Made by a program: the position numbers and the translations under genes. A stretch of 64,000 nt of DNA from Candidatus Omnitrophota bacterium (GTDB lineage Bacteria > Omnitrophota > Gorgyraeia > Zapsychrales > Fredricksoniimonadaceae), in the NCBI GenBank assembly GCA_030650275.1, contig JAUSEK010000001.1, positions 101 through 64,100 of the forward strand, in the 5' to 3' direction. Numbering within the stretch: the stretch's first letter is position 1; the number at the start of each line of letters is the position of its first letter. The notes below the pieces were generated by a model that had not been told where the DNA came from, did no database searches, and was given only the letters and a program-made list of their open reading frames with translations. This document shows positions 2,817 to 57,430 of this stretch, piece after piece.

Positions 2817-4574
<1,758 letters not shown>

Positions 4575-4910: not shown

Positions 4911-4916
4911 AATTTA

Positions 4917-4945
4917 ATTATAACACAACGGGAAAGCTTGTTCAA
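4917..4945 (-). promoter_or_regulatory. sigma70-like promoter for iscA-thiC (TTGAAC-17-TGnTATAAT), predicted leaderless
   Basis: Minus strand reads gcagTTGAACaagctttcccgttgtgtTATAATtaaattATG. The -10 ends 6 nt before the ATG, so transcription would start at or next to the start codon. No Shine-Dalgarno. Confidence 0.45.
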
Positions 4946-4984
4946 CTGCGGAGGTTCTAACTCGGAGGGTCACCGGCATTACCT

Positions 4985-5851
4985 TCAATAACGCATTGAA
5001 AACCCGCAAAATGGGTTTAAATCATCCGCGGCGGCCGTCGCGCCTATATTAATACCCATATCCAATTGTATATATTCGGTCAAAGCGTAGGTTAATCCGG
5101 CATCAACCGTTGCGACCAATTTTGCATCCTCTTCTGTGCTGATATGACTGAAGAATTCCACATAACCGCTTAGGCCGCCGACGATGGCGTGTCCAAAAGT
5201 AATAGAATGAATATATTCCCTATGATAGTTGTCATCCGATTTATTTTTATTAAGATCAACTTCAGCCATCAAACCCATATTCCACTCAGCGGCAAGCCCG
5301 ACAGCCAAGGGAACAATGATCCCGCCTTCCATATCGTCGTTACCAAAATGACCCCTATCAGTTGGAAATTTAATGAAAGGCATCAAGGCCAAAGCTGTCT
5401 GCCCGCCATCATTTCCCCATATATTGACCTTAAGACGGGTTTGCATATCCCCAAATCCTTCTTTGGTTGAGTGGACCCCGTCTTCTCTTGTTTTCTCATG
5501 GGCATAAGGATTAATGATCACTTGCAGATCCGCGTTATTTAAAAGTCCGATCTTAAAATTTGCAGGGGCGTAACTAAACGTATCAACGCGGGTTTGTGGT
5601 TCATCCGGGTTATGATGGTCATAGGCATGATCGATCAGGCTCATTTCTACCTGAACGTGGCCGGCATCAACGGTATAAGGACTTTCAGTTTTATCCGGAC
5701 GGTCTGTGCTCATCTCACGCATCAATTCAACCGGTGTCGGATGAAATAAATGGTATTGTTGCTTATTGGACACTGCTTGGTCAGCGGCTTGGGCTGAAAC
5801 GGCATGGAATAAAAATATCAGTAAGGCCAAAATTTGTTTGCGATGCATCAT
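4985..5851 (-). CDS. outer-membrane transporter family protein (MetA-pathway phenol-degradation-like)
   Basis: 288 aa; signal peptide MMHRKQILALLIFLFHAVSAQA, MSTDRP motif and C-terminal aromatic residue. Lower GC than neighbours. Confidence 0.55.
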   Translation of the reverse strand: MMHRKQILALLIFLFHAVSAQAADQAVSNKQQYHLFHPTPVELMREMSTDRPDKTESPYTVDAGHVQVEMSLIDHAYDHHNPDEPQTRVDTFSYAPANFKIGLLNNADLQVIINPYAHEKTREDGVHSTKEGFGDMQTRLKVNIWGNDGGQTALALMPFIKFPTDRGHFGNDDMEGGIIVPLAVGLAAEWNMGLMAEVDLNKNKSDDNYHREYIHSITFGHAIVGGLSGYVEFFSHISTEEDAKLVATVDAGLTYALTEYIQLDMGINIGATAAADDLNPFCGFSMRY

Positions 5852-5882: not shown

Positions 5883-6740
5883 TTAACAGGGGGCGTTCAG
5901 GAGGCTCATTTTAGATTTGATGACGCCGTAATTGCGTTGGGAAGAAATGAGGTAAAATTCCTTCATCTGCCAGGGTCTGGGGGTCTTAGTAAAAAAGGCG
6001 GTGTCCACTTTGTCCAGGACCTTGCCGCTCTCGACGGCGCGCAGGTCATAGCCGGCCGAGCGGATGATGGGCCAGGAGCCGGCGAAATCCCAGATGTGGC
6101 AGCGCAAAAAACACCCGCAACCGCGGCCCAAAGCCGACCAGCACAGATTGACAACGGCACAGGCCGCGATCATGATGTGAAAATCCTTGTCATTCCAGCG
6201 GTATTTGTCAAAAAACGTATCATTGCAGAAAAACAGCGACTTGGCTGAAATTTGCTCATCAACAGGAACAATGGGCGTGCGTTTTTCATCGGCGCTAAAG
6301 GCGTTGCGGACATAATACGAATGCGCGCCATCGCAAAAGAACAGTTCGTTGAGGACCGGAAAATACACAACACCCAGCCACGGTTGACGGTCTTTCATAA
6401 GCCCCAGGGAAATGCCGAAGAGCGGCATGCCCTTGGCATAAAGCCGCGTGCCGTCAATGGGGTCCAGAGCCCAAATAAATTTCTTTTTAGCCAGGAAACT
6501 GTCATCAAGATACTCGCCGATGCGCGGGTCTTCCTCATCAATGAGCACGTGGTCCGGGTCCTTGAGAAATTCCCCCAGCGACCGGCGGCAAAGCCCGGAA
6601 ATGGCGCGGTCCGCTTCGGTGATGACGGACTGGTCGGATTTCAAGGCCGATCCGCCTTCAGACATATATTTTAAAGCAATACTCCCCGCTTCGCGGATGA
6701 AGCTGAACATTTTTTCAAGATAAACAGCTGAATTTTCCAT
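5883..6740 (-). CDS. inositol monophosphatase / CysQ family phosphatase
   Basis: WALDPIDGT signature of the IMPase superfamily. Confidence 0.8.
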   Translation of the reverse strand: MENSAVYLEKMFSFIREAGSIALKYMSEGGSALKSDQSVITEADRAISGLCRRSLGEFLKDPDHVLIDEEDPRIGEYLDDSFLAKKKFIWALDPIDGTRLYAKGMPLFGISLGLMKDRQPWLGVVYFPVLNELFFCDGAHSYYVRNAFSADEKRTPIVPVDEQISAKSLFFCNDTFFDKYRWNDKDFHIMIAACAVVNLCWSALGRGCGCFLRCHIWDFAGSWPIIRSAGYDLRAVESGKVLDKVDTAFFTKTPRPWQMKEFYLISSQRNYGVIKSKMSLLNAPC

Positions 6741-8509: not shown

Positions 8510-8958
8510 ACCCCTGCTCCCTGGCATTTGGCGCAAATCCCGTAAAAATGCATTTCATGTCCCAGCACTTTGAACCCCTCTTTCTCTAAAATAGGATGAT
8601 AACGGCTGTCTTCGCCCAGGTCCGGAAATTCAATGACCCCGTGACAGCGCACGCAGCGGGCATGATGATGCGGTTTTTCATCATAAATGTGCTCAAAATG
8701 CTGATGCTTTTCCCCAAAGGCCGTTTCGCGGACGACGCCGGCCTCCAGCATTTCCCTTAAAGAACGGTACACGGTGGCCCTGGAAATTTTCGGCTTGTGC
8801 CGGACGCAGAATTTTGCGATCTCTTCGGTGGTAAAATGGCCATGGGCGTTCATGACCTCTTTAAAGACCCCTGACCGCCCGCGGCTGACCTTTAAACCCG
8901 CGCGAGAAAGGTATTTCTCAAACTTGCAGTGCTCCCGGGCAATGGATGTTGTTTCCAT
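8506..8958 (-). CDS. Fur-family metalloregulator (likely Mn/Fe uptake regulator)
   Basis: HHHxRCVRCHG...CxxC Fur motifs. Immediately upstream of mntH. Start taken as METTS. Confidence 0.85.
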
Positions 8959-9020
8959 ATGAGATACTGTATCGTCCAAAAAATAAAAATCAAGTTCTTT
9001 TTTTAAAGAGCTTTAACACA

Positions 9021-9572
9021 TTAATCGCGCCACTTGATGGAACAGCCCATGGAGGGGAATTGTTGGACGGCAACAGGACGGCCGGCAGACATGTTGTTCA
9101 TCGCCTCCTTCAATTCTTCGCGGGTCACGGCGTCTTCGTCCTTCCAATTGTCGTCCACGCGGCCGTGATAGGCAAGTTTTCTATCTTTGTTGAACAGATA
9201 AATGTCGGGCGTGCATTGGGCGCGGAAGGCATCGGCGACTTTTTGAGTTTCGTCAGCCAGATACGGAAAATCGATCCCCCATTCCTTGATCTTGAGCGCC
9301 ATCTTGTCCGGAGCGTCGTCGGGAAAGTTAGGATTGATGTTGGGATTGATGGCCACGGTATTGACCTTCATCCCCTTGCCGTATTTGGCCAGGCGCAATA
9401 ACCGCGGCCACACCGCCAAAGCATACGGGCAATGATTGCAGGTGAAAGCCACCAAAAGCCCGCGCTCACCGTACAAATCGCTTCCCTTATAGGATCTTCC
9501 GGACGGGTCTTTGAGCTGGAAATCCGGCATCAGAGTACCTAACGGTATTTTGATGGATTCCAATAAAGCCAT
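9021..9572 (-). CDS. thioredoxin-fold thiol-disulfide oxidoreductase (redoxin family)
   Basis: CNHC (CxxC) motif in a TlpA/AhpC-like context; 183 aa. Confidence 0.65.
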   Translation of the reverse strand: MALLESIKIPLGTLMPDFQLKDPSGRSYKGSDLYGERGLLVAFTCNHCPYALAVWPRLLRLAKYGKGMKVNTVAINPNINPNFPDDAPDKMALKIKEWGIDFPYLADETQKVADAFRAQCTPDIYLFNKDRKLAYHGRVDDNWKDEDAVTREELKEAMNNMSAGRPVAVQQFPSMGCSIKWRD

Positions 9573-25685: not shown

Positions 25686-26915
25686 TTAAAAATATTCCTG
25701 GCACATGTCCTTCAACTGCGTCAAAACCTTGTTCTTGATCTGGCCGGCCCTGCCCCAATGGATGGACTCTTCGGTATTTTGCAGATAATTCATCTTGGCC
25801 AGACCGATGGCGCCGGCAAAAACCGGAACATTGTTCAGGCCCTTGGCCCCGACGCCCATCCCAACCGGCAGATGGACCCGTTGCTCAACGCGTTCCATGA
25901 GCCCGGGCAATAAAGCCCCTCCCCCGACCATGACAATGCCGCCGTTGAGATCATGGACAAGGACGGACCCCTCGATCACCGTTTCCAGATGCGTCAGGAA
26001 ATTCTCGATCTCCCAACCAACGGCATCGCAGACCGATTGGCGGCTGACCGGGACATACTCTGTGGCGCGCAGAACCAGGATGTCACCTGTTTCCGCCGAC
26101 GGACCCGGCGCGGCAACGGCATGCAGGCGCTTGATCTCCTCGGCCTTTTCGATCGTCAGGCTCAAACGGTCCGCGAGGGTTTGGGTGACATACTGCCCTC
26201 CCCAGGGGATCAATTGGATATCGCGCAGCACGCCGTCCTTGAATAACAGGACATTGGTCAGCTTGGCGCCGATATCGACCAGAACGCACCCCCTGTCCTT
26301 AAGATTTTTATCCAACACCACTTCAGCGGCGGCATAGGAGGAACAGGACAGGCGGTCCACCTCGAAACCGGCCTGATGCACGGCCTGCACCACATTGCGC
26401 AAACGATTGGCCTTGGCGGCCAGGATCAAAATATTGGACTCAAGTTTGCGGCCGAAAAGCCCCGCGGGGTTCAATGCCGCGTTAACGTCATCCACCCTGT
26501 ACATCTGGGGAAAATCGTGGATCGTTTCCTCGTCGATATCGACCCCCAGCAACCGGGCCTGGTGGTTGACCTTGCGGATGTCCGAAGGGCTGATGACCTT
26601 GGTGCCGGCGTCGATCAGGGGAATGACCGCGGCACTACGGTGCACGCTCAACGCGTCCGCACCTATTCCGACACGTAAGCTGCGGACCTCAACGGAAAAT
26701 TTCCGGGCCACACTTTTAACGGCGGACTTGATGCATTGGGACAGGTCCTCCAGATCGCTGACAGACCCGTCCTTGAGCCCCATCGCGCGGGTTTGAAAAA
26801 CCCCCAACAGCTCCAGGTTCTGTGCATCCTGCGCCTTGACCAGGGCGACCTTGAACTCACTGGCCCCCAGGTCCAAACCGCAAAAATATTTCAATCGCGC
26901 GACTCTCTTGAACAT
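25686..26915 (-). CDS. ftsA: cell division protein FtsA
   Basis: 409 aa; actin-like ATPase motifs (GLDLGA..., ...DIGAK...). Confidence 0.9.
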   Translation of the reverse strand: MFKRVARLKYFCGLDLGASEFKVALVKAQDAQNLELLGVFQTRAMGLKDGSVSDLEDLSQCIKSAVKSVARKFSVEVRSLRVGIGADALSVHRSAAVIPLIDAGTKVISPSDIRKVNHQARLLGVDIDEETIHDFPQMYRVDDVNAALNPAGLFGRKLESNILILAAKANRLRNVVQAVHQAGFEVDRLSCSSYAAAEVVLDKNLKDRGCVLVDIGAKLTNVLLFKDGVLRDIQLIPWGGQYVTQTLADRLSLTIEKAEEIKRLHAVAAPGPSAETGDILVLRATEYVPVSRQSVCDAVGWEIENFLTHLETVIEGSVLVHDLNGGIVMVGGGALLPGLMERVEQRVHLPVGMGVGAKGLNNVPVFAGAIGLAKMNYLQNTEESIHWGRAGQIKNKVLTQLKDMCQEYF

Positions 26916-26921
26916 ACGCTG

Positions 26922-27692
26922 TTATTTTGTCCTTTCCTCATCGGTCCCGGCGATGATGGGCTCGGCAAACCGCAGATCAACATACCGGGCCCGGGCCCAT
27001 TCAACGTTCCTTTGGGCCAAAAGGACCTCAAACTTCTGCACTTTCAACGGAAAATGGTCCTGGTCCAGGATCACGCGCAGTCCGCCGTCGAGAATGAACT
27101 CGATCTTCGACGGGTTGGCGGCATCAACGGCTGTGATCTTAAGCAAGGCCGTGCGCGGATGGCCCTTGAACTCATTCAGGATGGCCACCACCGCCCGCAG
27201 GGACCTGGAAACGACAGGAGCGCCCAGGACCACCCTGGGCCTTAGAACAATGCCGTTGACGACAGGCAAGGACGGCTGCTGGGTATCCGCGTTATAAAGC
27301 GCGACCCCCGCGGTATCCACGAGTAAAAATTTATTTTTCCGGCGCACCTGTGCCACAACATCGCGCTTCTTGGCCAGGACCTTGATCTTGTCGGGAAACT
27401 GGCGGATGACCCGCAATTGCGCGATCTGCGGGTATTGCGCGCTCAACCGGGAATGCACTTTGCGGACATCCACCTTAAAAATATTGTGCCCCTTTAACCC
27501 GCGCAGGTCCCGGGCATCAATGAACCGGATCGACGCGTCAACCAGCACGTCCTTGACCGCAAACAGCGGCGATGTCGTCAAGAAATCCACGGTTTTGGCA
27601 TACGCTGAAAAGACCACCAGGGCGATGAACAAAAAAACAATGGTCCGGATGACCGCAATGCCCGGGATGTTAATGTTTGACTTTTTTGCCAT
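26922..27692 (-). CDS. ftsQ: cell division protein FtsQ/DivIB
   Basis: N-terminal TM plus POTRA domain. Start taken as MAKKSNINIPG; the longer ORF-track form would overlap ddl by about 200 bp. Confidence 0.7.
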   Translation of the reverse strand: MAKKSNINIPGIAVIRTIVFLFIALVVFSAYAKTVDFLTTSPLFAVKDVLVDASIRFIDARDLRGLKGHNIFKVDVRKVHSRLSAQYPQIAQLRVIRQFPDKIKVLAKKRDVVAQVRRKNKFLLVDTAGVALYNADTQQPSLPVVNGIVLRPRVVLGAPVVSRSLRAVVAILNEFKGHPRTALLKITAVDAANPSKIEFILDGGLRVILDQDHFPLKVQKFEVLLAQRNVEWARARYVDLRFAEPIIAGTDEERTK

Positions 27693-28617
27693 AGGCCAGG
27701 TCCAAAAGTTTTTCGCATACCCCCGCGAACGAATACCCGGCCTTGAAAGCGGCCTTGGGGAACAAGCTTGTTTCGGTGAATCCGGGAATGGTGTTGATCT
27801 CCAGAATATAAGGGTCACCCTTTTCATCCACGCGCAGATCCACCCGCGAGAAGGCCTCACACCCGAGGATATCATGGGCGGCCAAAGCGATCTGCCGGAT
27901 ACGTTGTGTCAGGGCCTGATCAATGTCCGCGGGAACGGTGTATTGGGTCAACCCTTTCTGGTATTTGGAGGTGAAATCAAAAAAAGCGGAAGGCGGACGG
28001 ATCTCGACCAAGGGCAGGACCTCGCGGTCAAAAATACCCGCGGTGAATTCCCTCCCCTTGATGAACCGCTCAACGATCACGCGCCCACCGAACGACAAAG
28101 CGTCCTTGAAGGCCGATTCCCACTGGGAAGGATGGCGCACGATATAGACCCCGATGCTGGAGCCCTCGCACGCGGCCTTGACCACGAACGGCAAATTCTT
28201 GAGCGCGGCGAAAACATCCTTAAAAGTGACCGGGTCCCCGTCCGTGATGCAGACATGCGGCGGCACGGGAATGCCCGCCTGCTTGAACAGGGTTTGGGTT
28301 ATGGTCTTATCAAACGCCAGACGGCTGGCGTCGGGGCCGCAGCCCGTATAAGGAATATCCATTTCTTCCAAAATGGACTGGATCACTCCATCCTCCCCCA
28401 AACGGCCGTGCAAGGCGATAAAGGCGATGTCCATAGCAGCGTCCCGCAGCAGCGTCCTGATGAGGCCCTGGTCGGAAACGTTGATGTCAACAGGCACGGC
28501 CTGATGGCCGGCTCCGGACAATGCAAGGGCGACCGCCCGTCCCGACCTTAAAGAAATTTCCCTTTCGGACGAATAGCCACCCATCAAAACGCCGATGGTC
28601 CCGAAACGTCCGCTCAT
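27670..28617 (-). CDS. ddl: D-alanine--D-alanine ligase
   Basis: 315 aa; ATP-grasp Ddl motifs. Confidence 0.9.
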   Translation of the reverse strand: MSGRFGTIGVLMGGYSSEREISLRSGRAVALALSGAGHQAVPVDINVSDQGLIRTLLRDAAMDIAFIALHGRLGEDGVIQSILEEMDIPYTGCGPDASRLAFDKTITQTLFKQAGIPVPPHVCITDGDPVTFKDVFAALKNLPFVVKAACEGSSIGVYIVRHPSQWESAFKDALSFGGRVIVERFIKGREFTAGIFDREVLPLVEIRPPSAFFDFTSKYQKGLTQYTVPADIDQALTQRIRQIALAAHDILGCEAFSRVDLRVDEKGDPYILEINTIPGFTETSLFPKAAFKAGYSFAGVCEKLLDLAYGKKVKH

Positions 28618-41683: not shown

Positions 41684-42601
41684 TTAGAGAATGCTGCGGG
41701 CTTTGCGTTCGTCCGCGCCGATCTGGCGGACAAGGTCTTGCGGGGTCTTAAAGACGCGTTCGTTGCGGATCTTTTTTATAAAATGGACTTCGAGGGTCTG
41801 GCCGTAGAGGTTTTGGTTGAGGTCAAAAATATACACTTCCAAATGAACGGTCGGCTTTCTCTCCTTGAACGTGGGGCGCACGCCCAGATTGGCAACGCCG
41901 CGCCGTATTTCTCCTTTGACGTCCACCCGCACGGCATAAACACCATGAGGCGGTAAAATGTTGGGTCCCAAGCGCAAATTTGCCGTCGGATATCCCAATC
42001 TCCGGCCGCGGCCGCGGCTTTGCACCACGTCGGCCATGACTGAAAACGGCCTGCCCAACAAGCGTTGGGCCGCGCTCAATTTCCCCGACGCTATCAAGCC
42101 GCGCAAACGGGTGCTGCTGATGGGTTCGCCTCCGACTTTTAAAGGTGCCACTCCATGGGCAACATAACCATATTGTTCACCCAAACGCTTAAAAAGAGCG
42201 ATGTCCCCGCGGCGGTCTTTGCCGAAACGAAAATCTTCCCCCACAAAAACCGCCTGGACGCCCAAACGCCCGACGAGAGCGCTGCGGATAAAGGTCTCGG
42301 GTCGGATGGCGGCAAAGGCCCGCGTGAAACGAATGACGATGCAGACCCTGACCCCGAGCGTTTCCAAAAGTTTGAACCGGTGGCGCAGAGAAACTAAATA
42401 ATCGATCTTGGCGGACGAAGACAAAACATGGGCAGGATGAGGAAAAAAAGTAATGACAACCGGCACGGCTTTCCGGCGGCGGGCCTCTTTCACCATGGCC
42501 GCCAGCAGCATTTGATGGCCGCGGTGCACCCCGTCAAAAATACCGATGGCAACGCAGGAGCGTTTAATTTTGACCCGGCCAAGACCGGATATGACCTTCA
42601 T
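41684..42601 (-). CDS. ribF: bifunctional riboflavin kinase / FAD synthetase
   Basis: 305 aa; N-terminal FAD synthetase (GxFDGxHxGH) plus C-terminal flavokinase. Confidence 0.9.
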   Translation of the reverse strand: MKVISGLGRVKIKRSCVAIGIFDGVHRGHQMLLAAMVKEARRRKAVPVVITFFPHPAHVLSSSAKIDYLVSLRHRFKLLETLGVRVCIVIRFTRAFAAIRPETFIRSALVGRLGVQAVFVGEDFRFGKDRRGDIALFKRLGEQYGYVAHGVAPLKVGGEPISSTRLRGLIASGKLSAAQRLLGRPFSVMADVVQSRGRGRRLGYPTANLRLGPNILPPHGVYAVRVDVKGEIRRGVANLGVRPTFKERKPTVHLEVYIFDLNQNLYGQTLEVHFIKKIRNERVFKTPQDLVRQIGADERKARSIL

Positions 42602-43232
42602 TTAAGTCCTCAAGTTTGACCGCGTCCTTGATGTCAAAAGGCCCGACCTTGGTCCGCTCGATCTGGCTGATGCAGGCACCGCACCCAAGGACATCGCCCA
42701 CATCTTCGGCCAATTGGCGGACATAGGTGCCCTTGGAACAGGCCATAAAAAATTCCACTTCTGGAAGGGCGAACGACAACAGCCGCACCTCGTCCACGCG
42801 CACCTTGCGGGCCGTGCGTTCAACGCTTTTGCCCTCGCGGGCGATCTTATAAAGCCGCTGGCCCTGATGCTTCACCGCGGAAACCATGGGCGGTTTTTGT
42901 TCAATGTCCCCCACGAAACCCCTGAAAACCTCTTCCACGCGCGAACGCGTGATCCCGGAAAACGGCTTTTCCTCAATGACCTGGCCCATGATATCAGCGG
43001 TGGTGGTCTTGGTGCCCAAACGCAAGGTGGCGCGGTAGGACTTGTCAAAAGCGACAAAACGGTCGAACAGCTTGGTGGACTTCCCCAAAAGCATCACCAG
43101 CACACCGGTGGCCAAAGGGTCCAGCGTCCCGGCATGCCCCACCCGGCGCATCTTGAATTTCCTGCGGATAAAGCCGACCACGTCGTGGGAGGTGATCCCC
43201 GGCGGTTTATTGACGACAATAACGCCTTCCAT
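42564..43232 (-). CDS. truB: tRNA pseudouridine(55) synthase
   Basis: HAGTLDPLATGVL catalytic Asp motif; 222 aa. Confidence 0.9.
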   Translation of the reverse strand: MEGVIVVNKPPGITSHDVVGFIRRKFKMRRVGHAGTLDPLATGVLVMLLGKSTKLFDRFVAFDKSYRATLRLGTKTTTADIMGQVIEEKPFSGITRSRVEEVFRGFVGDIEQKPPMVSAVKHQGQRLYKIAREGKSVERTARKVRVDEVRLLSFALPEVEFFMACSKGTYVRQLAEDVGDVLGCGACISQIERTKVGPFDIKDAVKLEDLNEGHIRSWPGQN

Positions 43233-43244
43233 GTTCCCGCCTTT

Positions 43245-44222
43245 TTAAGCGCTTTTAAGCTGCTTCGCGCAAGCCGCCAATATTTTTTTCCGGGCGGTCA
43301 AAAGACCCGCGTGCACCTTGCACCCGGCGGCCTTGCGGTGGCCTCCCCCGTCGAATTGCTGGGCCAAGACCGCCACATCCATTTTGCCCTGACTGCGCAA
43401 ATTCACCCTCGTCATCTTGGAATTCACTTCGTTCAGGATAATGACCGCTTCAATGCCTTTCACGTTCCTTAAAAAAGTAAAGACCTTCTCCTTGAGGTCA
43501 AACCCTTTGGAAAAAAGGTCCGCCGTGCGTTTGGGGATGGGCGCGCAATACACGCGGCCGCCCAAAACAAGTTCGGCCTCATAAATGAGTTTGGAAAAAT
43601 GTTTCATGTCAGCGACGGGGATTCCGGGATAAAGTTTTTCATTCAAAAACGGCGCCTTTAAACCAAAAGCCATGAGTTCACCCGCGATGGCGTGGGTGCG
43701 GCTGCTTGTATTTTCATATTTGAACGAACCCGTGTCCGTCATGATGCCGGCATACAAAAGCAGGGCCATGTCCTTGTCCAAACGGACCTTCGCCCGCTCA
43801 AACAGGCCGAACAAAACTTCGCACGTTGAAGACGCCCTGGGGACAACACAGTTGACGGAACCAAAACGGTCGTTGGTCACATGATGGTCGATATTGATCA
43901 CAGGTTTGCCTTTGACCAAAAGTTTTCTCACCCCGCCGATACGCTCAAGGTCTCCGCAGTCCAGGACAATGGCCGCCCCATAGTCAAACGGTTTAACGCT
44001 GGAGGCCTTTTTGAAAAGCCCGGCCTTGGGCAGGAATTTCAACCAATCAGGCAGATCGTTCTCGTTGACAACGACGGCGGACTTTTTCATTTTCTTAAGC
44101 GCCAGCACCATGGCTAAAACGGAAGCCGCGGCATCCGTGTCAGGGTTACAATGGCAGGTCACCAAAAACGTCTTGTGCCGGCGCACAACGCGCAGGACAT
44201 CATCAAACGCTTTCATCAGCAC
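43245..44222 (-). CDS. nrnA: DHH/DHHA1 phosphoesterase (NrnA-type oligoribonuclease / pAp phosphatase)
   Basis: DHH motifs (CHCNPDTD, DHH) and DHHA1 GGGH; located between rbfA and truB. Confidence 0.8.
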   Translation of the reverse strand: MLMKAFDDVLRVVRRHKTFLVTCHCNPDTDAAASVLAMVLALKKMKKSAVVVNENDLPDWLKFLPKAGLFKKASSVKPFDYGAAIVLDCGDLERIGGVRKLLVKGKPVINIDHHVTNDRFGSVNCVVPRASSTCEVLFGLFERAKVRLDKDMALLLYAGIMTDTGSFKYENTSSRTHAIAGELMAFGLKAPFLNEKLYPGIPVADMKHFSKLIYEAELVLGGRVYCAPIPKRTADLFSKGFDLKEKVFTFLRNVKGIEAVIILNEVNSKMTRVNLRSQGKMDVAVLAQQFDGGGHRKAAGCKVHAGLLTARKKILAACAKQLKSA

Positions 44223-46184: not shown

Positions 46185-48792
<2,608 letters not shown>

Positions 48793-48807
48793 ATCATATA
48801 TCTGATT

Positions 48808-48836
48808 ATTTTAACATCCCGACGGTATTCCGTCAA
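48808..48836 (-). promoter_or_regulatory. candidate tRNA-Pro promoter TTGACG-17-TAAAAT
   Basis: Hexamers read on the minus strand about 15 nt upstream of the mature tRNA 5' end. Confidence 0.4.
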
Positions 48837-49079
48837 TCCTTTGTGGGGTGTTGCGCATCTCGTGCGCAAGCCTAACCTGCTCATTGCAAAAGATATGGGC
48901 GGTATCCGGACGCTTCCTTTGCGGTAAACGCCCATACGCCCTCCCGTCTAAATGTCCGTCATTTTAAATGTTTTTGGGGGAAATATTTTGTTCAACCGAC
49001 CGGGGAAATCGGCTACTACACCTATATACTAATATAAAACCAGAACCTGTCAATTGTTCTTGTGACGCCATTTGTTCTT

Positions 49080-50291
49080 TCAACTTTCACTAACTCTAAA
49101 AGATCGTATTGAATTTATCTTTTCGTTTATTTTAAATGTATGCTCATCAAGATCGTTAACAAATTCCTCAATGCTATCTAATTCTTCATCTGTAAAGCTG
49201 CGGTGTTCATATCGCAACATTCCATTGATGAGTCCCAAGAGATCACTAAACCCATGTCTTTGATACGGCTCTAGCAACCTATCTTCGGCTTTTCTTTGCC
49301 AAAACATGTATGGGGGATTCTTTTTCTTGCTCAAGCTTATTTTTGCAGTACTTAACGCGTTGGTGAGGCGCCCGACCCTGAAAAGCACATAGAAAATAAT
49401 GTAACTGACACAATAATATTCCTTGTCTCTGCTAAGTCGGGTGAGCAATGCTTGAACGAATAATTCTCCGTCTTTCTCATCCCTGAAAGATTTAAATAAC
49501 TTAACTAATGCATCGCCGTTCTCAGACTGCACAGTTGCCCCTTGGGGATCATTTAATATTTCTTGCCGCTCTCCAGATTTACTACTCGTCCAACTATCCT
49601 GATAGATGCTTTTAATTTGTCTCCCTTGGCATAATGCGTATATACTACCCAACTCTCCTGATTGACGCCCGTATTTTTGATAACGACTAATTTCATCCTT
49701 AAGAGTAGCTGCCACTTTTCTTTCTATTTGATTTTGTAACTTATAGATTGCTTCCTCTGTTAATTTAATAGGTATAAATCTTTTCTTTTTATCTGATTTA
49801 AATTCAACGTTCTTTAGAATGCGTTTCTGTCCATATTGATCTACGAAAATTATGTCTGCTTTGAAATCCTTCCCTTCCTTGCAAAATGGTGGGCAAATCC
49901 AGAAATCTGCGTGTAGGTCGGTAGTCGCGCGTGGAGGAATAGGGTAGTCTCCGTGATATTCACTGTGCACATCTTTAAGCGATACATGTCCTTGATTTCT
50001 AGGCTTCTTGATGTAAACGTTTAAGATGCTAATCGGTTGGTCTGTTGGATTTGTTACGTACCAATAACCCACTATCTGCATGGCGGGTTTTTGATCACCG
50101 GTGCTCCCCATGTGCCACCAGTTAAATCTGTAATGAGGAAGGATGATTGGACGGTTTAGCCAATGCCTTATCCATGGGAATATGGCCCCTAATTTCTCCA
50201 ATATACTGTTCAGCGATGCCAAAGATTGACTGAGTATTCGAGCCCAAAACTTTACATCGCTATCTGTGTTTAAGTTATTATTTTGAGTCAT
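49080..50291 (-). CDS. orphan hypothetical protein (403 aa) in low-GC island
   Basis: Clean 403-codon ORF with GC of roughly 42% by eye versus about 58% in the flanks. No motif I can place; N-terminal half beta-rich, C-terminal half helical. Confidence 0.6.
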   Translation of the reverse strand: MTQNNNLNTDSDVKFWARILSQSLASLNSILEKLGAIFPWIRHWLNRPIILPHYRFNWWHMGSTGDQKPAMQIVGYWYVTNPTDQPISILNVYIKKPRNQGHVSLKDVHSEYHGDYPIPPRATTDLHADFWICPPFCKEGKDFKADIIFVDQYGQKRILKNVEFKSDKKKRFIPIKLTEEAIYKLQNQIERKVAATLKDEISRYQKYGRQSGELGSIYALCQGRQIKSIYQDSWTSSKSGERQEILNDPQGATVQSENGDALVKLFKSFRDEKDGELFVQALLTRLSRDKEYYCVSYIIFYVLFRVGRLTNALSTAKISLSKKKNPPYMFWQRKAEDRLLEPYQRHGFSDLLGLINGMLRYEHRSFTDEELDSIEEFVNDLDEHTFKINEKINSIRSFRVSES

Positions 50292-50554
50292 TCCGCCTTT
50301 AGTTCTTTGAACCGTTTCCAGGTATCTTATTTATTCGCTAATGATTCTGATGAAATGTACCCATTATGCCAGAAACAAAAACCCTCCGCAATTCATTAAA
50401 ATCGCATGGGTTTATATACAAATAGCCTCAAATCTAATTCAAATTCTGTCCTCCCAAGTACCGGTTCTGCCTCCATTGCCTAACATTGAATTGTTCAAAA
50501 ATAAATCCTCCCCGTCCTTACCCTATTCTCTCCTCTCCCATGTCGCAAGGGGTA

Positions 50555-50611
50555 GTTCAAGACCCCACTCACTCATAAAAAACTTATAGTAGAGTGTGTG
50601 GGGTCTTGAAC
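50555..50611. repeat. 20-bp inverted repeat (GTTCAAGACCCCACTCACTC / GAGTGTGTGGGGTCTTGAAC) with 17-bp AT-rich spacer
   Basis: Arms are reverse complements with a single mismatch; read directly. Confidence 0.55.
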
Positions 50612-50659
50612 GGTTTTGAGCGCTTTTGCCCAAAAACCCCGTGCAAATGGGAGAAAAAA

Positions 50660-50734
50660 GGGCACAAATTAGGCACAGATTTGTGCCTGATCTGTGCCCA
50701 AACTTGCGCCCTTGTTTGTGCCTAATCTGTGTCT
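50660..50734. repeat. array of GGCACA / TGTGCC heptamers forming nested palindromes
   Basis: At least six copies of the (A/G)GGCACA core in both orientations within 75 bp: GGGCACA, AGGCACA, TGTGCCT, TGTGCCC, then TGTGCCT-AATC-TGTGTCT. Confidence 0.55.
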
Positions 50735-51081
50735 ATTTTAGACTATAGCTCAAAGAAATAGTACCTACGATTATCTTTTTACATAACGAATTAGTAGGCC
50801 AACCCTTCTCCAGTCCGTATTTGAAGGTTAAGCGCCACACTTGTTGTTAAACAAGCAGAAACAAGCACTACGAGTACCTTTATACGCAACCTGGCCTTTA
50901 CACGGCTCACCACCTCTATGCCACAGTTCAGTTGAGGATTTTGCATGTTGCCCTCTCCTTTCCCGGACTGCGGAAGGGTTGGCGCTTGGCGATGTGCCAT
51001 TTATAGAATTTTAATGTTGTGAAAAGGGCTTTTGTCGAATTTCGAACCCGATGTCGGACATACGCAACGAAAATGCAATTC

Positions 51082-51492
51082 TTAGGGCTTTATCATCTGT
51101 TTTGTTTTTTGGATAACCTGGCTGACAAAAGCAATATAATCATCCGCTTCTTTCTTGGTGATCGTGCCGCCGGCATCGTAAAGGTCTTTATTACGCTTCA
51201 TCCGCATGGCATTGCCAACCGTAAAGACATCTGGATCGCCTAGAATTTCACTCAACTTAAGTAATATCTTAACATGATGCCCGGTCACGCTCCTGACCTT
51301 AACCCCGCCCTTCTTTGCCAAAATAGCCATGCCGATCTTGATCAATGCCTGATAACAATAGGTAAATTGGACTTCCCTAAAATGGTCTTTCTGGGCAATA
51401 TCCAGATCACGCATGGCGCTTTCAACATAACGGTCAATTTGGGCCGCCGTAAATTTAAACTTCTGAAAGAACTCCTGTTCAAATGAGATCAT
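51082..51492 (-). CDS. HEPN-domain protein (toxin partner of nucleotidyltransferase)
   Basis: 136 aa helical protein with R-x4-HH (RSVTGHH). Overlaps the upstream MNT gene by 4 bp (ATGA). Confidence 0.65.
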   Translation of the reverse strand: MISFEQEFFQKFKFTAAQIDRYVESAMRDLDIAQKDHFREVQFTYCYQALIKIGMAILAKKGGVKVRSVTGHHVKILLKLSEILGDPDVFTVGNAMRMKRNKDLYDAGGTITKKEADDYIAFVSQVIQKTKQMIKP

Positions 51493-52031
51493 ATGATCCT
51501 CACGGTTTTCTTGGATTCAATAGACTTTAAAAACGGATCCTTCCCTTTTTTATCATTGTACTCCTGAAGCGACATACTGACGGCATTAATGTCTCTTTGG
51601 GTAGACTTTTGCACCTGTGCAACCGCCTTTTGAAGTTCTACGGTACTATGATCTCCAACAACCAAAAAATCAATGTCGCTATGGGAATCCATCTTCTCCT
51701 GGGCATAGGAACCAAAAATAACGGCTTTTTTAATACCAGAAATAGTGCCAAGTGAAGTCTTTAATACCTGCTCCAGACCAATGGTCTTTAAAACGATGTT
51801 TTTATACTCCTTTAACAACGGAAAGCTCTTATTTAACGAATAATACCGCTGTTTGCCCTGCCAGCGGCTTTTTAAGAGGCCCTCTTTTTCAAGGACGATC
51901 AGTTTACGGGTCAAATTACCGCTCTCTGTATGGAGGATCCGGGCTAGGTCATTGACATAAACCTCAAACCCTTGTTGCAGCATGAAATAATTGAGGATTT
52001 GTTGAGAAACTTTAGAGCGCAGGCTGATCAT
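51489..52031 (-). CDS. minimal nucleotidyltransferase (MNT) with N-terminal winged-HTH
   Basis: GSYAQEKMDSHSDIDFLVV (GS...DxD) pol-beta NTase motif preceded by a wHTH-like segment; 180 aa. Confidence 0.75.
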   Translation of the reverse strand: MISLRSKVSQQILNYFMLQQGFEVYVNDLARILHTESGNLTRKLIVLEKEGLLKSRWQGKQRYYSLNKSFPLLKEYKNIVLKTIGLEQVLKTSLGTISGIKKAVIFGSYAQEKMDSHSDIDFLVVGDHSTVELQKAVAQVQKSTQRDINAVSMSLQEYNDKKGKDPFLKSIESKKTVRII

Positions 52032-52054
52032 AGGAATTGCCTCACTGTGTTGAT

Positions 52055-52082
52055 TTACAGTGATTACTGTAAATTATTACAG
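52055..52082 (-). promoter_or_regulatory. overlapping palindromes TTTACAGT-GATT-ACTGTAAA and CTGTAA-ATTA-TTACAG upstream of the MNT-HEPN operon (candidate operator)
   Basis: Perfect inverted repeats 24-51 bp upstream of the MNT start codon. Confidence 0.4.
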
Positions 52083-52139
52083 CAATGGAGTCAATATTTT
52101 TATCAATTTTTGGTATCCCAAAGACATCTAACTTATTTA

Positions 52140-52194
52140 TGCACAAAACAACAAATAAATATGCACAGATCGACATAATCTTTTGCACAAATCG
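52140..52194. repeat. three direct repeats TGCACA(A/G)A(A/T)C spaced 22-23 bp
   Basis: TGCACAAAAC (52140), TGCACAGATC (52162) and TGCACAAATC (52185). Core resembles the GGCACA(A/G)AT heptamers at 50660-50680. Confidence 0.45.
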
Positions 52195-52290
52195 ATATGG
52201 TTTTTGGTGTCCAAAAAGTGTCCAAGTTTAATGCAGATTGGTTAAAACTGAATAAAAATGATTAAAAAGGTCTCGCTTTAGGACAAGTTT

Positions 52291-52725
52291 TCATACCTCT
52301 TTGATCCCGAGGCCGATCTCGGCTTCGGCGACAAGTTTGTCCCCCACCCTGACCTCGGCGCGGATGATGCCGGTCTTGGGTAAAAGTTTCACGGAAGAGA
52401 CCTCAATGCGCAACTGGTCACCGGGGACCACGGGATGGTGAAAACGCGCATCGATCTTGGCCAGATGATAAACCAGGTCCTTGCCCTGCAAATCTTTACT
52501 GTAATAAAAATAGACGCAACCCGCCTGGGTCATGGCTTCAATGATCAGCACGCCGGGCATGATCTTTTCACCCGGGAAATGCCCCTGAAAAAATTGTTCA
52601 TTGATCGAAACGTTCTTCACAGCGGTCAACTTCTGATCGGGGACGCACTCAACGACCTTGTCGATCATCAGGAACGGATAACGATGAGGGATTATTTTCT
52701 GGATCTCTAAAATATCTAAAATCAT
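52291..52725 (-). CDS. fabZ: 3-hydroxyacyl-ACP dehydratase FabZ
   Basis: PHRYPFLMIDKV and GHFPG hot-dog fold motifs; 144 aa; AAGGAGAG RBS. Confidence 0.9.
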   Translation of the reverse strand: MILDILEIQKIIPHRYPFLMIDKVVECVPDQKLTAVKNVSINEQFFQGHFPGEKIMPGVLIIEAMTQAGCVYFYYSKDLQGKDLVYHLAKIDARFHHPVVPGDQLRIEVSSVKLLPKTGIIRAEVRVGDKLVAEAEIGLGIKEV

Positions 52726-52740: not shown

Positions 52741-52775
52741 CAGGACCCCGCCGCTTGCCGCTAACGGCAGGCGGG
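52741..52775 (-). other. GC-rich hairpin enclosing the ribE stop codon, immediately before the fabZ RBS
   Basis: CCCCGCCGCTTGCCG-CTAA-CGGCAGGCGGGG: about 14 bp of pairing with one mismatch. The ribE TAG sits in the loop and no U-run follows. Confidence 0.4.
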
Positions 52776-53354
52776 GCTTCTGTTTAAAATATATTTTGCC
52801 AGAACATCCGTCTCAACATTCACCAGGTCCCCCGCCTTCTTACGGGCCAGTGTCGTCACGGCCAGCGTATAGGGAATTAAATAAACACTGAAATCCGACG
52901 CCCCCACCTTGCCGACGGTCAAACTGATCCCGTCGACGGCCACAGACCCTTTAGGCGCCAGATATTTACGATTCGTTTTAGAAATACTGATGGTCAGCGC
53001 CACCCAATTCTTGGCGCGCTCAACGCGTTTGACCACGGCCGCCTCGTCCACGTGGCCGGTGACAAAATGCCCGCCCAAACGGCCGTCGGACTTTAACGCC
53101 AGTTCCAAATTGACCTTGCCGCCGGTCTTAAGGTCTTTGAGCGCGGTGTTGGCTATGGTCTCGCGCATCGCGTCAAAAGAAATGACGGTCCCTTTTTTAC
53201 GCGACGCGGTCAGGCAAACACCGTTGAGCGCCACACTATCACCCAAACGTACGTCTTTGGCCAAAGGCCCGGCGTCCACGGACAAGGCCATCAAATTGGC
53301 TTTTGTCCCCATGGCCTTGATCGTTCCCGCGTGTTGAATGATCCCGGTGAACAC
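52761..53354 (-). CDS. ribE: riboflavin synthase (alpha subunit)
   Basis: MFTGII start and duplicated lumazine-binding half-domains; 197 aa. Confidence 0.9.
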   Translation of the reverse strand: MFTGIIQHAGTIKAMGTKANLMALSVDAGPLAKDVRLGDSVALNGVCLTASRKKGTVISFDAMRETIANTALKDLKTGGKVNLELALKSDGRLGGHFVTGHVDEAAVVKRVERAKNWVALTISISKTNRKYLAPKGSVAVDGISLTVGKVGASDFSVYLIPYTLAVTTLARKKAGDLVNVETDVLAKYILNRSPACR

Positions 53355-54427
53355 TACAAATACCCCTCGATCAAAATATCTTCGCCGATCTTGCCGGCGG
53401 AAACGCGCTTCAATGCAACGGCCTCATCCAGACGCCTGACGCGCAATCCCCGGACGGCATCCAGGCCCTCTCCCATGATCCTGAGGGCGACATACACCAT
53501 CATTTTGTCCACCAAGCCCTCTTTGAGCGCGGCGCCGACCAAGGCCGCGCCCCCTTCGATCAACATAGCAGTTATTTCCCGCTGGGCAAGGATTTTCAAA
53601 GCCCGGCGCAGGTCCACCCTGCCTCCTTTGGCCGGCACAACGATGATCTCGGCTTTGCGGCCTAATGATTTTATCCTGCGCGCCGAAGCCCTCTGCGTGG
53701 TCAATATCAAAACATCTTCCCTGCGCGTGCCTTTAAAAAGTTTGGCATCGGCCGGTGTTTTCAAGTCCGAATCAAAAATAATTTTTTTCAAACGTTTAGC
53801 GGGGAAAGAATTCAAGGCCGGGTCATCTTTGAGCACCGTATTGACCCCCACGGCAATGGCATCAAAACCGAAACGCATGCAACGGGCCAGATCGCGGCTG
53901 GCCTTGGACGTGATCCATTTGGATTCGCCGCTTAAGGTCGCTGTCTTGCCGTCCAGAGTTTGCGCGGTCTTGGCGGTAACGAACGGCATGCGCTTGCTGA
54001 TCCATTGATTGAATGCCTCATTCATGCGCGTCAGTTCTTCTTGCAAGAACCCGGCCTTAACGCTGATGCCGGCCTTGCGCAAGATCTGAATGGACTTGCC
54101 GCTCATCAAAGGATTGGGGTCCAAAACGCCGATATAAACCTTGCGGATGCCGGCGCGGATGATGGCATCAGTGCATGGCGATGTACGGCCATAATGAGAA
54201 CAGGGCTCCAGCGTCACGTACAAAACAGCGCCTTTGGCTTTGGCCCCGATTTTCTTCAAGGCCATGGCCTCGGCGTGGTCAGCCCCGCAGGCCGCGTGCC
54301 ATCCCTCGGCAATGACCTTGCCGTTCTTGACGACGAGGGCGCCGACCATCGGGTTAGGCGAAGTCCTGCCCCAGCCCTTCATGGCCAATTCGTACGCGCG
54401 GTGCATGTAAAATAAATGATCATTCAT
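53354..54427 (-). CDS. ribD: bifunctional diaminohydroxyphosphoribosylaminopyrimidine deaminase / 5-amino-6-(5-phosphoribosylamino)uracil reductase
   Basis: CDA zinc motif HAE...PCxxC plus C-terminal reductase domain; 357 aa. Confidence 0.9.
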   Translation of the reverse strand: MNDHLFYMHRAYELAMKGWGRTSPNPMVGALVVKNGKVIAEGWHAACGADHAEAMALKKIGAKAKGAVLYVTLEPCSHYGRTSPCTDAIIRAGIRKVYIGVLDPNPLMSGKSIQILRKAGISVKAGFLQEELTRMNEAFNQWISKRMPFVTAKTAQTLDGKTATLSGESKWITSKASRDLARCMRFGFDAIAVGVNTVLKDDPALNSFPAKRLKKIIFDSDLKTPADAKLFKGTRREDVLILTTQRASARRIKSLGRKAEIIVVPAKGGRVDLRRALKILAQREITAMLIEGGAALVGAALKEGLVDKMMVYVALRIMGEGLDAVRGLRVRRLDEAVALKRVSAGKIGEDILIEGYL

Positions 54428-54430
54428 AAA

Positions 54431-55276
54431 TCAAGCACATCTCGCCTTCATTTGCTCAACGGTTGCATAAGGTACCGAGGCCTTGCCGACATAGGTGTGG
54501 GATTTGGCTGACCCGTGCGCGTCGGAGCCGCCGGTCATCACCAGATCGTATTTCTTGGCTATCTTTTCATAAAATTTTGTGACCGTGTCCGTGGTATTGG
54601 GATAATACACCTCAAGGCCGCCCAAGCCAGCCTTGACCATGGGCGAAATGAGTTCGTCTTTTTGCGTGAGCATAGGATGGGCCATGACCGCGATGCCTCC
54701 GCTTTGGCGGATGAGATCAATGGCCTCAAAGGGCGTCTGTTTGTATTTAGGTGCCCAGCCCGGGCAGCCTTCGGATAAATATTTTTTGAAAGCGTCTTTG
54801 AACGACGACACCCATCCCTTTTGGTGCAGCAGCAAAGCCAGATGCGCCCGGCCGACAGCCCTGCTTTTGGTGAGCGCGCAAACTTCCTCGAATGTGATAT
54901 TGTCGATGCCCACGGTTTTCAAATTGAGCAACATCTGTTTCATGCGCGCCACACGGGCGTCCAAAAATGTGTCCAGACGATCGAACAAAGGGCCCTTGGC
55001 ATAGTCAATGAAATATCCCAGAATATGCACGTCCTTGCCCTCGATCTCGGAAGACAATTCAATGCCCGGGACGACCTCAAGCCCCGAGGGATTGGCCGCT
55101 GTGATGGCGGGTGCGACCCCTTCAGTAATATCATGGTCGGTGATGGCAATGCAGGCAAGCCCGGCTTTCAGCGCGTCGGCGACGACTTCCTCGGGGGAAG
55201 AGGTCCCGTCGGAATAATAGGTGTGCATGTGAAGGTCGGCAAGGGCGGGCAGGGCTTCCATGAGTTTAGGGCTCAT
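54431..55276 (-). CDS. PHP-domain phosphoesterase (TrpH/YciV-like)
   Basis: [12 protein letters not shown] start of the PHP domain; about 282 aa. Start taken as MSPKLMEAL, overlapping the nusB stop by 11 bp. Confidence 0.75.
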
Positions 55277-55685
55277 GAACGATCTCTTTTTTATGGATCT
55301 TGTCGAGGATGCCGTTGACGAATTTGCTGGATTCCAGGTCGCCGTATTTCTTGGCGAGTTCAACCGCTTCGTTGATGGCAACCTTGGGCGGAATGTCCGT
55401 GGTGTATTTGAGCTCAAAAAGCCCCATGCGCAAAATGTTGCGGTCAATGATGGCCATGCGCGTCAACTGCCAGTTGGTGGCGTATTCGGAAATTTTGCCG
55501 TCAATGTCCTTCAGGTTTTCGCGCACGCCCCCGGCCAGACGTTGGGCATAACCCATGACCTCCCCGTCTTTGTTGGGCTCCTGGCCCCAATAATCACCCA
55601 GAGAGTCCTCCAAAGACCGGCGGGTCAGCTCGATCTGGTAAAGGATCTTTAAAGCGTGTTCACGGGCCAGGGTGCGACGTCTCAT
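55266..55685 (-). CDS. nusB: transcription antitermination factor NusB
   Basis: 139 aa all-helical; ...[13 protein letters not shown]... NusB signature region. Confidence 0.9.
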
Positions 55686-55695: not shown

Positions 55696-56136
55696 CTAAA
55701 CCTTTTTTAATAAATTGACCATCTGCAAAGCCGCCCGGGCCGCGTCCCTGCCTTTATTCGGACCGCCCTTGCTTTGGGCGCGTTTCTGGGCCTGGTCAAC
55801 GGTGTCCGCGGTCAAAATGCCCATGATCACCGGTTTTCCCGCCGTCAAAGAGGCCTCCATGATGCCGCGCACACCTTCATTGGCGATCACCTCAAAATGA
55901 TATGTTTCCCCGCGGATGACCGCGCCCAGACAGATGACGGCGTCCACGTTCTTTTTCTTGGCCAGTTTCAAAGCCGTCAAAGGAATTTCAAAAGTTCCGG
56001 GCACCCACACCGTCGTGATCTGGTCTTCTTTAAGACCGGAATGTTTGAGTTCCATCCAGCAGGCGTTCACAAGCGCCTTGGTGATGAAATCATTGAAACA
56101 CGACGCGACAATGGCAATGCGGACCTTCTTTTTCAC
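55696..56136 (-). CDS. ribH: 6,7-dimethyl-8-ribityllumazine synthase
   Basis: 146 aa; [11 protein letters not shown] and lumazine synthase fold motifs. Confidence 0.9.
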
Positions 56137-57335
56137 AAAATATGCCCCAACTTGTCTTTCTTGGCCTTCAGGTATTGCTCGTTTTGGGGATTATGCGGGA
56201 TCTTGATGGGGATCCGCTCGACGACCGTAAGCCCGTATCCTTCCAGACCCACGATCTTGCGGGGATTATTGGTCAATAACCGGATCTGGCGGACCCCCAG
56301 GTCAACGAGGATCTGCGCGCCGATGCCGTAATCACGCAGATCGGGGGCGAAGCCCAGGGCCTGATTGGCCTCGACCGTGTCCATGCCGTCATCCTGCAGA
56401 TTGTAGGCCTTCATTTTATTGACCAGGCCGATGCCCCGGCCTTCATGATGGCGGATATAAAGCACAACACCCGTGCCGATCTCGGCAATGGCTTTCATGG
56501 CGCTTTTGAGCTGGCTGTTGCAGTCACAACGCAAAGACCCGAACACGTCTCCGGTCAGGCATTCGCTCTGGGCCCGCACCAAGACCGGCTTGGTCCCGTC
56601 GATGTCCCCCCTGACCATGGCGATGTGCAGGACATTGTCCACCAGGGACTGGTAAGCGACCATCTTGAATTCCCCAAACTCCGTCGGTAAATTCGCCTCT
56701 TCCACCCGCTCGACGAGTTTTTCGGTCTTGCGGCGGTATTCGATCAAGCTGTCGATGGTGCAGATCTTCAAATTGCTTTTGCGGGCGAAGGTGACCAGGT
56801 CATTGGTCCGGGCCATGGTGCCGTCTTCGTTCATGATCTCGCAGATGACCCCGGCCGGATAAAGGCCGGCCAAACGCATCAGGTCCACCGATGCCTCGGT
56901 GTGCCCGGCGCGCACCAGCACCCCGCCCCGGCGGGCGCGCAGCGGGAACAAATGCCCGGGGGTCACAAGGTCTGACGGTTTGGATTTGGGGTCAATGAGG
57001 ACCCCGACGGTCTTGGCGCGGTCAGCGGCGGAAATACCCGTGGTGACGCCGAAAGCCGCGTCCACGGAAATGGTCCACGCGGTATTGCATTTTTGATGCT
57101 GATCGTTCAATTCATCCTTCATCGGATGAAGACCGAGTTCATTGAGCCGGCTGTCCTCCATGGGCACACAGATGAGCCCCCTGGCCTCCTTGGCCATGAA
57201 ATTGATGGCATTGGGGGTGATGAATTGGGCGGCAACGAGCACGTCCCCTTCGTTCTCGCGGCCCTCATCGTCCATGACAATGACCATGCGGCCTGCTTTA
57301 AGATCTTCCACAATTTCCGGAATAGTGTTAAACAT
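56133..57335 (-). CDS. ribBA: bifunctional 3,4-dihydroxy-2-butanone-4-phosphate synthase / GTP cyclohydrolase II
   Basis: 400 aa; DHBP synthase N-half and GCHII C-half with CxC...C zinc motif ([14 protein letters not shown]). Confidence 0.9.
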
Positions 57336-57343
57336 GGGGTCAA

Positions 57344-57372
57344 GTATATTCTAAATATTATTCCTTGTCAAT
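57344..57372 (-). promoter_or_regulatory. promoter for ribBA (TTGACA-17-TATACT), near-leaderless
   Basis: Minus strand reads TTGACAaggaataatatttagaaTATACTtgaccccATG. Only 8 nt separate the -10 from the ATG and there is no SD. Confidence 0.45.
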
Positions 57373-57430
57373 CCCTTTGTCCCGCCCTATAATAAAACAA
57401 GTTTTTCATAAACCTATTGTTTCTAATGAC

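Follow-up and report, generated by a model that had tools for sequence, protein, structure and literature searches.

The 64,000-nucleotide stretch analysed here (the window, positions 101 to 64,100 of contig JAUSEK010000001.1, assembly GCA_030650275.1, from a Candidatus Omnitrophota bacterium) carries on its minus strand, from 57335 to 52761, six closely packed genes in the order ribBA-ribH-nusB-PHP-ribD-ribE. The fourth of these, which encodes a PHP-family phosphoesterase among genes of riboflavin biosynthesis, is the subject of this work. An earlier note had favoured it as the missing phosphatase for 5-amino-6-ribitylamino-uracil-phosphate (ARPP), naming as the alternative a TrpH-type phosphatase for adenosine 3',5'-bisphosphate (pAp) or a 5'-3' RNase; of the two, we find the alternative better supported. 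The gene belongs, as their orthologue in Omnitrophota, to the two-domain PHP phosphoesterases of the TrpH/YciV (COG0613) kind, whose type examples are Cv1693 and RNase AM, and its product is probably a canonical pAp phosphatase or 5'-3' nanoRNase, coupled to nusB within a mixed housekeeping operon.

Genes in the window were named from its listing of open reading frames (ORFs) together with Pfam and NCBIfam scans, which confirmed the gene identities, their order, the overlap with nusB and the coordinates of the PHP gene as first described (Table 1). The curated equivalog cut-offs are passed by all five rib and nusB products, and the PHP ORF passes that of Pfam PF02811. The ribH start overlaps the ribBA stop by 4 nucleotides (nt), the PHP ATG at 55276 produces an 11-nt overlap with the nusB stop, 3 nt lie between the PHP stop and the ribD ATG, and the ribD stop codon shares 1 nt with the ribE start. 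A second in-frame PHP ATG is found at 55261, 4 nt past the nusB stop, and the tight coupling of nusB and PHP is kept with either start. An independent gene call on a public Logan contig gave the same 281-residue product. At the far end of the row, fabZ may close the same transcription unit.

Table 1. Genes and other features of the riboflavin gene row in the window
Feature	Position	Strand	Basis
ribBA, bifunctional 3,4-dihydroxy-2-butanone 4-phosphate (DHBP) synthase / GTP cyclohydrolase II	57335..56133	minus	DHBP_synthase + GTP_cyclohydro2; NF006803 614 bits (cut-off 569)
ribH, lumazine synthase	56136..55696	minus	TIGR00114 passed
nusB, transcription antitermination factor (non-riboflavin gene)	55685..55266	minus	TIGR01951 142 bits (cut-off 88)
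PHP phosphoesterase, 281 residues, TrpH/YciV / Cv1693 / RNase AM type	55276..54431	minus	PF02811 49.7 bits (cut-off 26.4)
ribD, deaminase/reductase	54427..53354	minus	TIGR00326 passed
ribE, riboflavin synthase	53354..52761	minus	Curated cut-off passed
fabZ	52725..52291	minus	Pfam/NCBIfam match; 35 nt 3' of ribE
PHP insertion-domain segment with 5'-phosphate pocket (R108, R111, R143) and base-stacking F163	54788..54955	minus	Residue equivalence to E. coli RNase AM
PHP GGSDAHG motif with metal ligands D252 and H254	54512..54532	minus	Residue equivalence
Sigma-70-like promoter (TTGACA, 17-nt spacer, TATACT)	57343..57371	minus	11/12 consensus matches

The PHP protein scores best among NCBIfam families against 3',5'-nucleoside bisphosphate phosphatase (NF041577, 180 bits), followed by RNase RNM, the family of RNase AM (NF047791, 153 bits), and the HisJ family (TIGR01856) reaches 22.8 bits against a cut-off of 90.2, through its N-terminal motif only. 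Sequence searches of the PDB returned only 3e0f (BAD_1165), 7ug9, 2yb1 and 9etk, with E values of 1e-27 to 1e-30. An AlphaFold (AF2) model built on the alignment (predicted local distance difference test 88.8, predicted template-modelling score 0.87) has the same four structures as its best fold matches, with E values of 1e-20 to 1e-21 and template-modelling (TM) scores of 0.79–0.83 over the whole chain, insertion domain included; in Foldseek, 9etk matched with an E value of 1.4e-21 and 2yb1 with a TM score of 0.83 over 276 columns. The histidinol-phosphate phosphatase 2yxo gave no significant match to the model (E 0.07, TM 0.23). The protein thus joins the known TrpH/YciV-Cv1693-RNase AM family, in which it shows every substrate-binding feature that was tested apart from a single loop arginine.

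The active site could be read residue by residue against a solved enzyme. In the structure of E. coli RNase AM, nine ligands (H13, H15, D20, H45, E72, H83, H198, D255 and H257) form a three-metal site, R107, R110 and R141 bury the 5'-phosphate of the nucleotide, and F161 stacks on its base (PMC9410882). The nine metal ligands (H16, H18, D23, H48, E73, H84, H200, D252 and H254) are all present in the PHP protein, as are the pocket residues R108, R111, R143 and F163, which correspond to R107, R110, R141 and F161, and both sets are invariant in a 23-sequence Omnitrophota alignment. Exceptions among rib-linked proteins concern H84 in two loci (L033 and L038) and R143K/F163A in a third (L062). The same ligands and pocket residues are equally conserved in homologues with no rib neighbours and in the solved enzymes. 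Only four positions (D82, M202, T204 and N227) are fixed in the main Omnitrophota clade and rare in unlinked proteins, and the comparison yielded no specificity signature of rib-linked proteins: because these four positions are absent from the other two rib-linked groups, we see no mark of a change in function tied to rib linkage. In a neighbour-joining tree too rough to judge monophyly, the rib-linked proteins stand mixed with unlinked proteins of other phyla, and one rib-linked group (L061/68/73/74) falls apart from the main clade.

This constellation suggests a mechanism in which the trinuclear metal centre would activate water, while the arginine pocket and the stacking phenylalanine would hold a nucleoside 5'-phosphate with its 3'-O-P bond over the metals. 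Because such a pocket clamps the 5'-phosphate with the 3'-O-P bond placed on the metals, the expected reactions would be the conversion of pAp to AMP and inorganic phosphate, and/or the removal of nucleotides, in the 5'-to-3' direction, from short RNAs with a 5'-monophosphate, including the trimming of rRNA 5' ends. If ARPP were the substrate, its single phosphate would instead bind the trinuclear metal site; we prefer the canonical activities mainly because this would seem to leave the arginine pocket without a role.

We examined the gene order in one genome per GTDB species, using an alignment of the PHP protein as query. The scan returned 80 loci, which were classified by tblastn with the window's own proteins across ~8 kb on each side of each match. 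The closest homologues are labelled Candidatus Omnitrophica or Omnitrophota, and the PHP gene lies inside the rib row in all 61 Omnitrophota-type loci, at PHP identities from 88% down to 41%; found in every such locus recovered, the arrangement is not a product of chance. The remaining 19 loci, from Elusimicrobiota, Nitrospirota, Nitrospinota, Margulisiibacteriota, Poribacteria and unclassified bacteria (PHP identity 39–47%), lack rib genes and nusB over the 8 kb around PHP, and three further contexts outside Omnitrophota (WOR-3 and two unclassified) are likewise unlinked. PHP neighbours in other phyla vary, including an alanine racemase, a folB-like gene and a CBS protein. Independent recurrence of PHP-rib co-localisation in unrelated lineages was therefore found in 0 of 22 loci. 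The check on co-localisation proposed in the earlier note is thus positive across Omnitrophota, but what it shows is a single arrangement inherited within one phylum and not a recurrent association.

Within Omnitrophota, nusB comes after ribH in 55 of 55 loci, PHP after nusB in 59 of 59 (median gap 2 nt, and at most 30 nt in 53 of them), and ribD after PHP in 47 of 53, where the genes overlap or nearly touch (median gap -1.5 nt). For comparison, 37 of 44 loci have cinA upstream of ribBA in divergent orientation, and in 21 of 31 fabZ is found no more than 3.2 kb past ribE; the unrelated genes nusB, cinA and fabZ are about as syntenic as PHP. Broken rows are informative in this respect. In five loci, ribD-ribE is detached and PHP remains with ribBA-ribH-nusB; the row of L033 is interrupted by a 5.2-kb insertion, and PHP is followed by uvrB in L012, by a helicase gene in L030 and by purU in L009, with ribD-ribE elsewhere in each of these. 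A related clade, identified with the L062 protein as query and examined in three long contigs (L085-L087), shares with L062 the canonical order ribD-ribE-ribBA-ribH-nusB, in which PHP comes last and is followed by a CobC-like histidine phosphatase gene and cobU-cobT-cobS. Because both the broken rows and this clade keep the block ribBA-ribH-nusB-PHP, that block is the ancestral unit, and ribD-ribE stands behind it in most Omnitrophota. The 'embedding' of PHP in most of the phylum reflects this placement of ribD-ribE behind the block, not in front of it. As an observation in its own right, the riboflavin operon in L085 (2918-11217), L086, L087 and L062 abuts the cobalamin nucleotide-loop genes by way of the His_Phos_1 (CobC-like) gene.

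The proposal that the PHP protein turns ARPP into its dephosphorylated form ArP for RibH, as a phosphatase outside the haloacid dehalogenase (HAD) superfamily and in either a sole or a moonlighting role in Omnitrophota, has to be judged against this history, and we regard it as improbable. It would account for a PHP gene set between rib genes, with the short junction to ribD, in 47 of the 53 informative loci and down to 41% identity. Riboflavin synthesis is encoded in over 75% of the genomes of this phylum (PMC10066038). Our literature search retrieved no paper assigning the ARPP step in this phylum, and no relevant paper linking PHP or COG0613 to riboflavin. A crude regular-expression search found no ORF with an N-terminal, HAD-like DxDxT motif in the 64-kb window, a result that has no bearing on the rest of the genome. 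The PHP superfamily also includes small-molecule phosphomonoesterases, such as the HisJ family; the fold of our protein, however, is of the Cv1693 type and not the HisJ type. Nor is it a HAD protein, as it has a PHP barrel and matches no HAD family. Against the proposal stand the single inheritance of the linkage, with no rib neighbours in the 22 loci of other phyla, and the identity of the constant partner, which is ribBA-ribH-nusB and not ribD: ribD-ribE detaches while PHP keeps company with nusB, and in the clade of L062 and L085-L087 PHP is not embedded at all, standing at the operon end after nusB. The neighbourhood also holds unrelated genes together (nusB, cinA and fabZ), as is documented for nusB-bearing operons (PMC5312566). 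The conserved three-arginine pocket and stacking phenylalanine suit a bisphosphate or a 5'-phosphorylated RNA and would have no obvious role with monophosphate ARPP, and no residue signature is common to the rib-linked proteins. The family name TrpH itself arose from a mis-association by gene neighbourhood. Taken together, these points lead us away from ARPP as the favoured substrate, for which the only support is a synteny inherited once.

One locus bears on this question from another side. In L005, a close relative with 88% nucleotide identity, a 1.4-kb insert with a HigB/HigA-like toxin-antitoxin pair (4119-5520) replaces the last ~100 nt of PHP, including the GGSDAHG motif and two metal ligands, and leaves the flanking rib genes intact. 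Either PHP is dispensable in that lineage or this single metagenome-assembled genome (MAG) is mis-assembled; a PHP protein short of two metal ligands beside a full set of intact rib genes speaks against an ARPP role, subject to that possible assembly artefact.

The regulatory layout of the row fits a mixed operon. Its sole strong promoter-like site lies 5' of ribBA and ends 8 nt before the ATG; inside the row, candidate promoters are weak consensus matches only and terminators are near shuffle expectation. PHP would accordingly share a transcript that starts in front of ribBA and would be translationally coupled to nusB. No riboswitch for flavin mononucleotide (FMN) or other Rfam element was found at gathering thresholds in the whole window, nor at E ≤ 1 between 52000 and 58200; p27_CRE, the sole Rfam match in the operon region, was dismissed as chance. 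Although nusB is not a riboflavin gene, it is common in rib operons, and operons that contain it usually hold further unrelated genes (nrdR, thiL and pgpA) and have no FMN riboswitch (PMC5312566). The operon in the window fits this published pattern. We envision nusB-containing rib operons as mixed housekeeping operons without flavin control, in which the position of PHP between rib genes would be a historical accident of operon architecture. Two smaller points concern the promoter region itself. At 57335-57393, promoter-like sites for ribBA (minus) and cinA/pncC (plus) stand back to back, each matching the consensus at 11 of 12 positions. As only 8 nt separate the ribBA ATG from its -10 element, the transcript of ribBA may have no leader, and because the listed cinA start at 57365 falls inside the promoter region, a later start (ATG ~57431) is more likely.

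A different link to flavins could come through RNA. With the active-site residues described above, RNase AM frees intact flavin adenine dinucleotide (FAD) in vitro from RNAs capped with it, and in E. coli it influences the level of FAD caps (PMC9410882). These residues are conserved in the PHP protein of the window; the window also encodes ribF, so the organism makes FAD. The enzyme might then remove FAD caps ('deFADding') or act on another adenylylated flavin, and its place in the operon would serve FAD recycling or quality control. We consider this purely speculative and very unlikely, since 5'-3' exoribonucleases in general seem to have deFADding as a side activity, which gives no reason for a special operon link, since unlinked homologues of other phyla carry the same residues, and since the operon has no flavin-sensing element.

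In E. coli, RNase AM matures 5S, 23S and 16S rRNA by trimming at the 5' end (PMC7261194), and we infer that an RNase AM-type enzyme beside NusB, a component of the rRNA antitermination machinery, would make a functionally coherent pair.

Several observations nonetheless weigh against the assignment as a pAp phosphatase or nanoRNase tied to nusB. Both curated equivalog cut-offs are missed (180 versus 400 bits and 153 versus 375 bits), which places the protein in the broader TrpH/YciV family, outside both curated equivalogs. The arginine of the HPGR motif (R201 in RNase AM), which contacts the scissile phosphate, is replaced in the HPM-L-T-Q-K sequence at H200; many proteins of the clade, though not all, have a lysine or arginine three positions later, and 3e0f (BAD_1165) also lacks the HPGR arginine. 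The window encodes an NrnA-like DHH protein (43245..44222, 107 bits against a cut-off of 350) and an IMPase/CysQ-like protein (5883..6740, weak HisN/CysQ similarity), and because either could cover pAp or nanoRNA, PHP is not obviously needed for these. No locus splits nusB-PHP from ribBA-ribH, so synteny gives no means of separating a link to nusB from a link to ribBA-ribH. Finally, the phylum-wide adjacency to ribD is real, and a riboflavin-related role would explain it too.

Some of these points could also be taken to mean that a TrpH-like fold has acquired a different small-molecule substrate, such as another nucleotide-derived phosphoester or an intermediate of cobalamin or another cofactor. 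The scores under both equivalog cut-offs and the altered loop after H200 leave room for such a change; the cobC-cobUTS genes after PHP in the L062 clade provide a hint of cobalamin, and PHP neighbours differ among phyla (alanine racemase, folB-like, CBS and cob genes). This seems to us unlikely, because the full set of residues for binding pAp or 5'-phosphorylated RNA is conserved and because no neighbour is conserved across phyla, so that nothing points to one alternative pathway.

The survey and the window yielded further observations on other subjects. In a subclade of four loci (L042, L043, L046 and L052, ~8835-9480 in each), the gene that follows PHP aligns with RibD over its reductase half alone (residues ~147-355 of the window RibD), and the deaminase half was not found within 8 kb on either side; the pyrimidine deaminase must therefore be elsewhere or replaced. 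L077, labelled Krumholzibacteria, has a PHP protein and a folB-like upstream neighbour that barely differ from their counterparts in the Nitrospira loci L075, L076, L078 and L079, which suggests that the L077 contig is mis-binned or mislabelled. In the window itself, ribF (riboflavin kinase/FAD synthetase, passing its cut-offs), truB and the gene for the NrnA-like DHH phosphoesterase are grouped at 41684-44222, and the NrnA-like protein and the inositol monophosphatase (IMPase)-family protein (5883-6740) might also serve as phosphatases of pAp or small molecules, or act on nanoRNA.

Next to the gene row, the region 48700-52250, between a tRNA gene (48719-48792, minus) and fabZ, has a low GC content (42-46% versus ~55%). 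Its ORFs encode a 403-residue protein (49080-50291) with no NCBIfam match, a helix-turn-helix and MntA-like nucleotidyltransferase protein (51489-52031) and a 136-residue partner (51082-51492), and the region resembles a small island beside a tRNA gene that includes a toxin-antitoxin pair. The relative L002 has ligA and an integrase gene after fabZ in place of the low-GC stretch. Farther away, two long plus-strand ORFs at 26836-28551, of odd composition and rich in Arg, Ser, Thr and Cys, lie amid the minus-strand dcw (mur/fts) cluster and are probably antisense artefacts over the ddl/ftsQ region.

If the ordinary reading of a canonical TrpH-type enzyme holds, the lesson is mainly one of caution and annotation: the proper label for the PHP gene is that of a TrpH/RNase AM-family phosphoesterase and not that of a riboflavin enzyme. 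More broadly, nusB-carrying rib operons should be treated as mixed housekeeping operons, in which guilt by association is unreliable, and ribBA-ribH-nusB-PHP is a phylum-wide marker arrangement for Omnitrophota. The pairing of nusB with an RNase AM-type gene might point to a coupling of rRNA transcription with the maturation of 5' ends. Should the rib-operon PHP enzyme wholly or partly perform ARPP dephosphorylation across Omnitrophota, it would represent a new enzyme family, a non-orthologous replacement outside the HAD superfamily for a reaction to which many genomes have no enzyme assigned; in a weaker variant, a PHP enzyme would couple flavin supply to the turnover of FAD-capped RNA. We give this pair of outcomes little credence.

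Comparison with known systems places the locus more precisely. The HAD-type ARPP phosphatases that perform the dephosphorylation step of riboflavin synthesis, E. coli YigB and YbjI and B. subtilis YcsE, YwtE and YitU (PMC7062661), have only the proposed reaction in common with the PHP protein. The two groups show no sequence similarity, and an aspartate nucleophile in a Rossmann-like fold contrasts with the trinuclear metal PHP barrel of the window protein. To our knowledge, genes for HAD ARPP phosphatases are generally not located in rib operons. The HisJ/HisK phosphatases share the superfamily and the trinuclear metal centre, whereas the HisJ enzymes lack the insertion domain that carries the arginine pocket. 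For the operon as a whole, a close parallel is found in mixed rib-nusB housekeeping operons, for example the proBA-nrdR-ribD-ribE-ribA-ribH-nusB-thiL-pgpA row of Vibrio cholerae, in which rib genes are co-transcribed with nusB and unrelated genes and no FMN riboswitch is present (PMC5312566). The passenger after nusB differs, being the PHP gene in the window, and ribD-ribE stands behind the block here, not in front of it.

The nearest known enzymes are Cv1693 and RNase AM. Cv1693 of Chromobacterium violaceum (2yb1), a pAp phosphatase, represents the best-scoring NCBIfam family and superposes along its length, insertion domain included, with the same metal-ligand and AMP-binding residues; the window protein is 30% identical to it, falls under its equivalog cut-off and is without the HPGR arginine. 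RNase AM of E. coli (YciV/TrpH, gene rnm; 7ug9) and of Vibrio (9etk) shares the PHP barrel with its insertion domain, all nine metal ligands and the full pocket, with a TM score of 0.79. It differs in its ~30% identity, in a score for the window protein below the RNase RNM cut-off, in having HPGR where the window protein has HPMLTQK, and in its genomic context, which is trp/yciO for RNase AM and nusB with rib genes here, where the corresponding activity is predicted.

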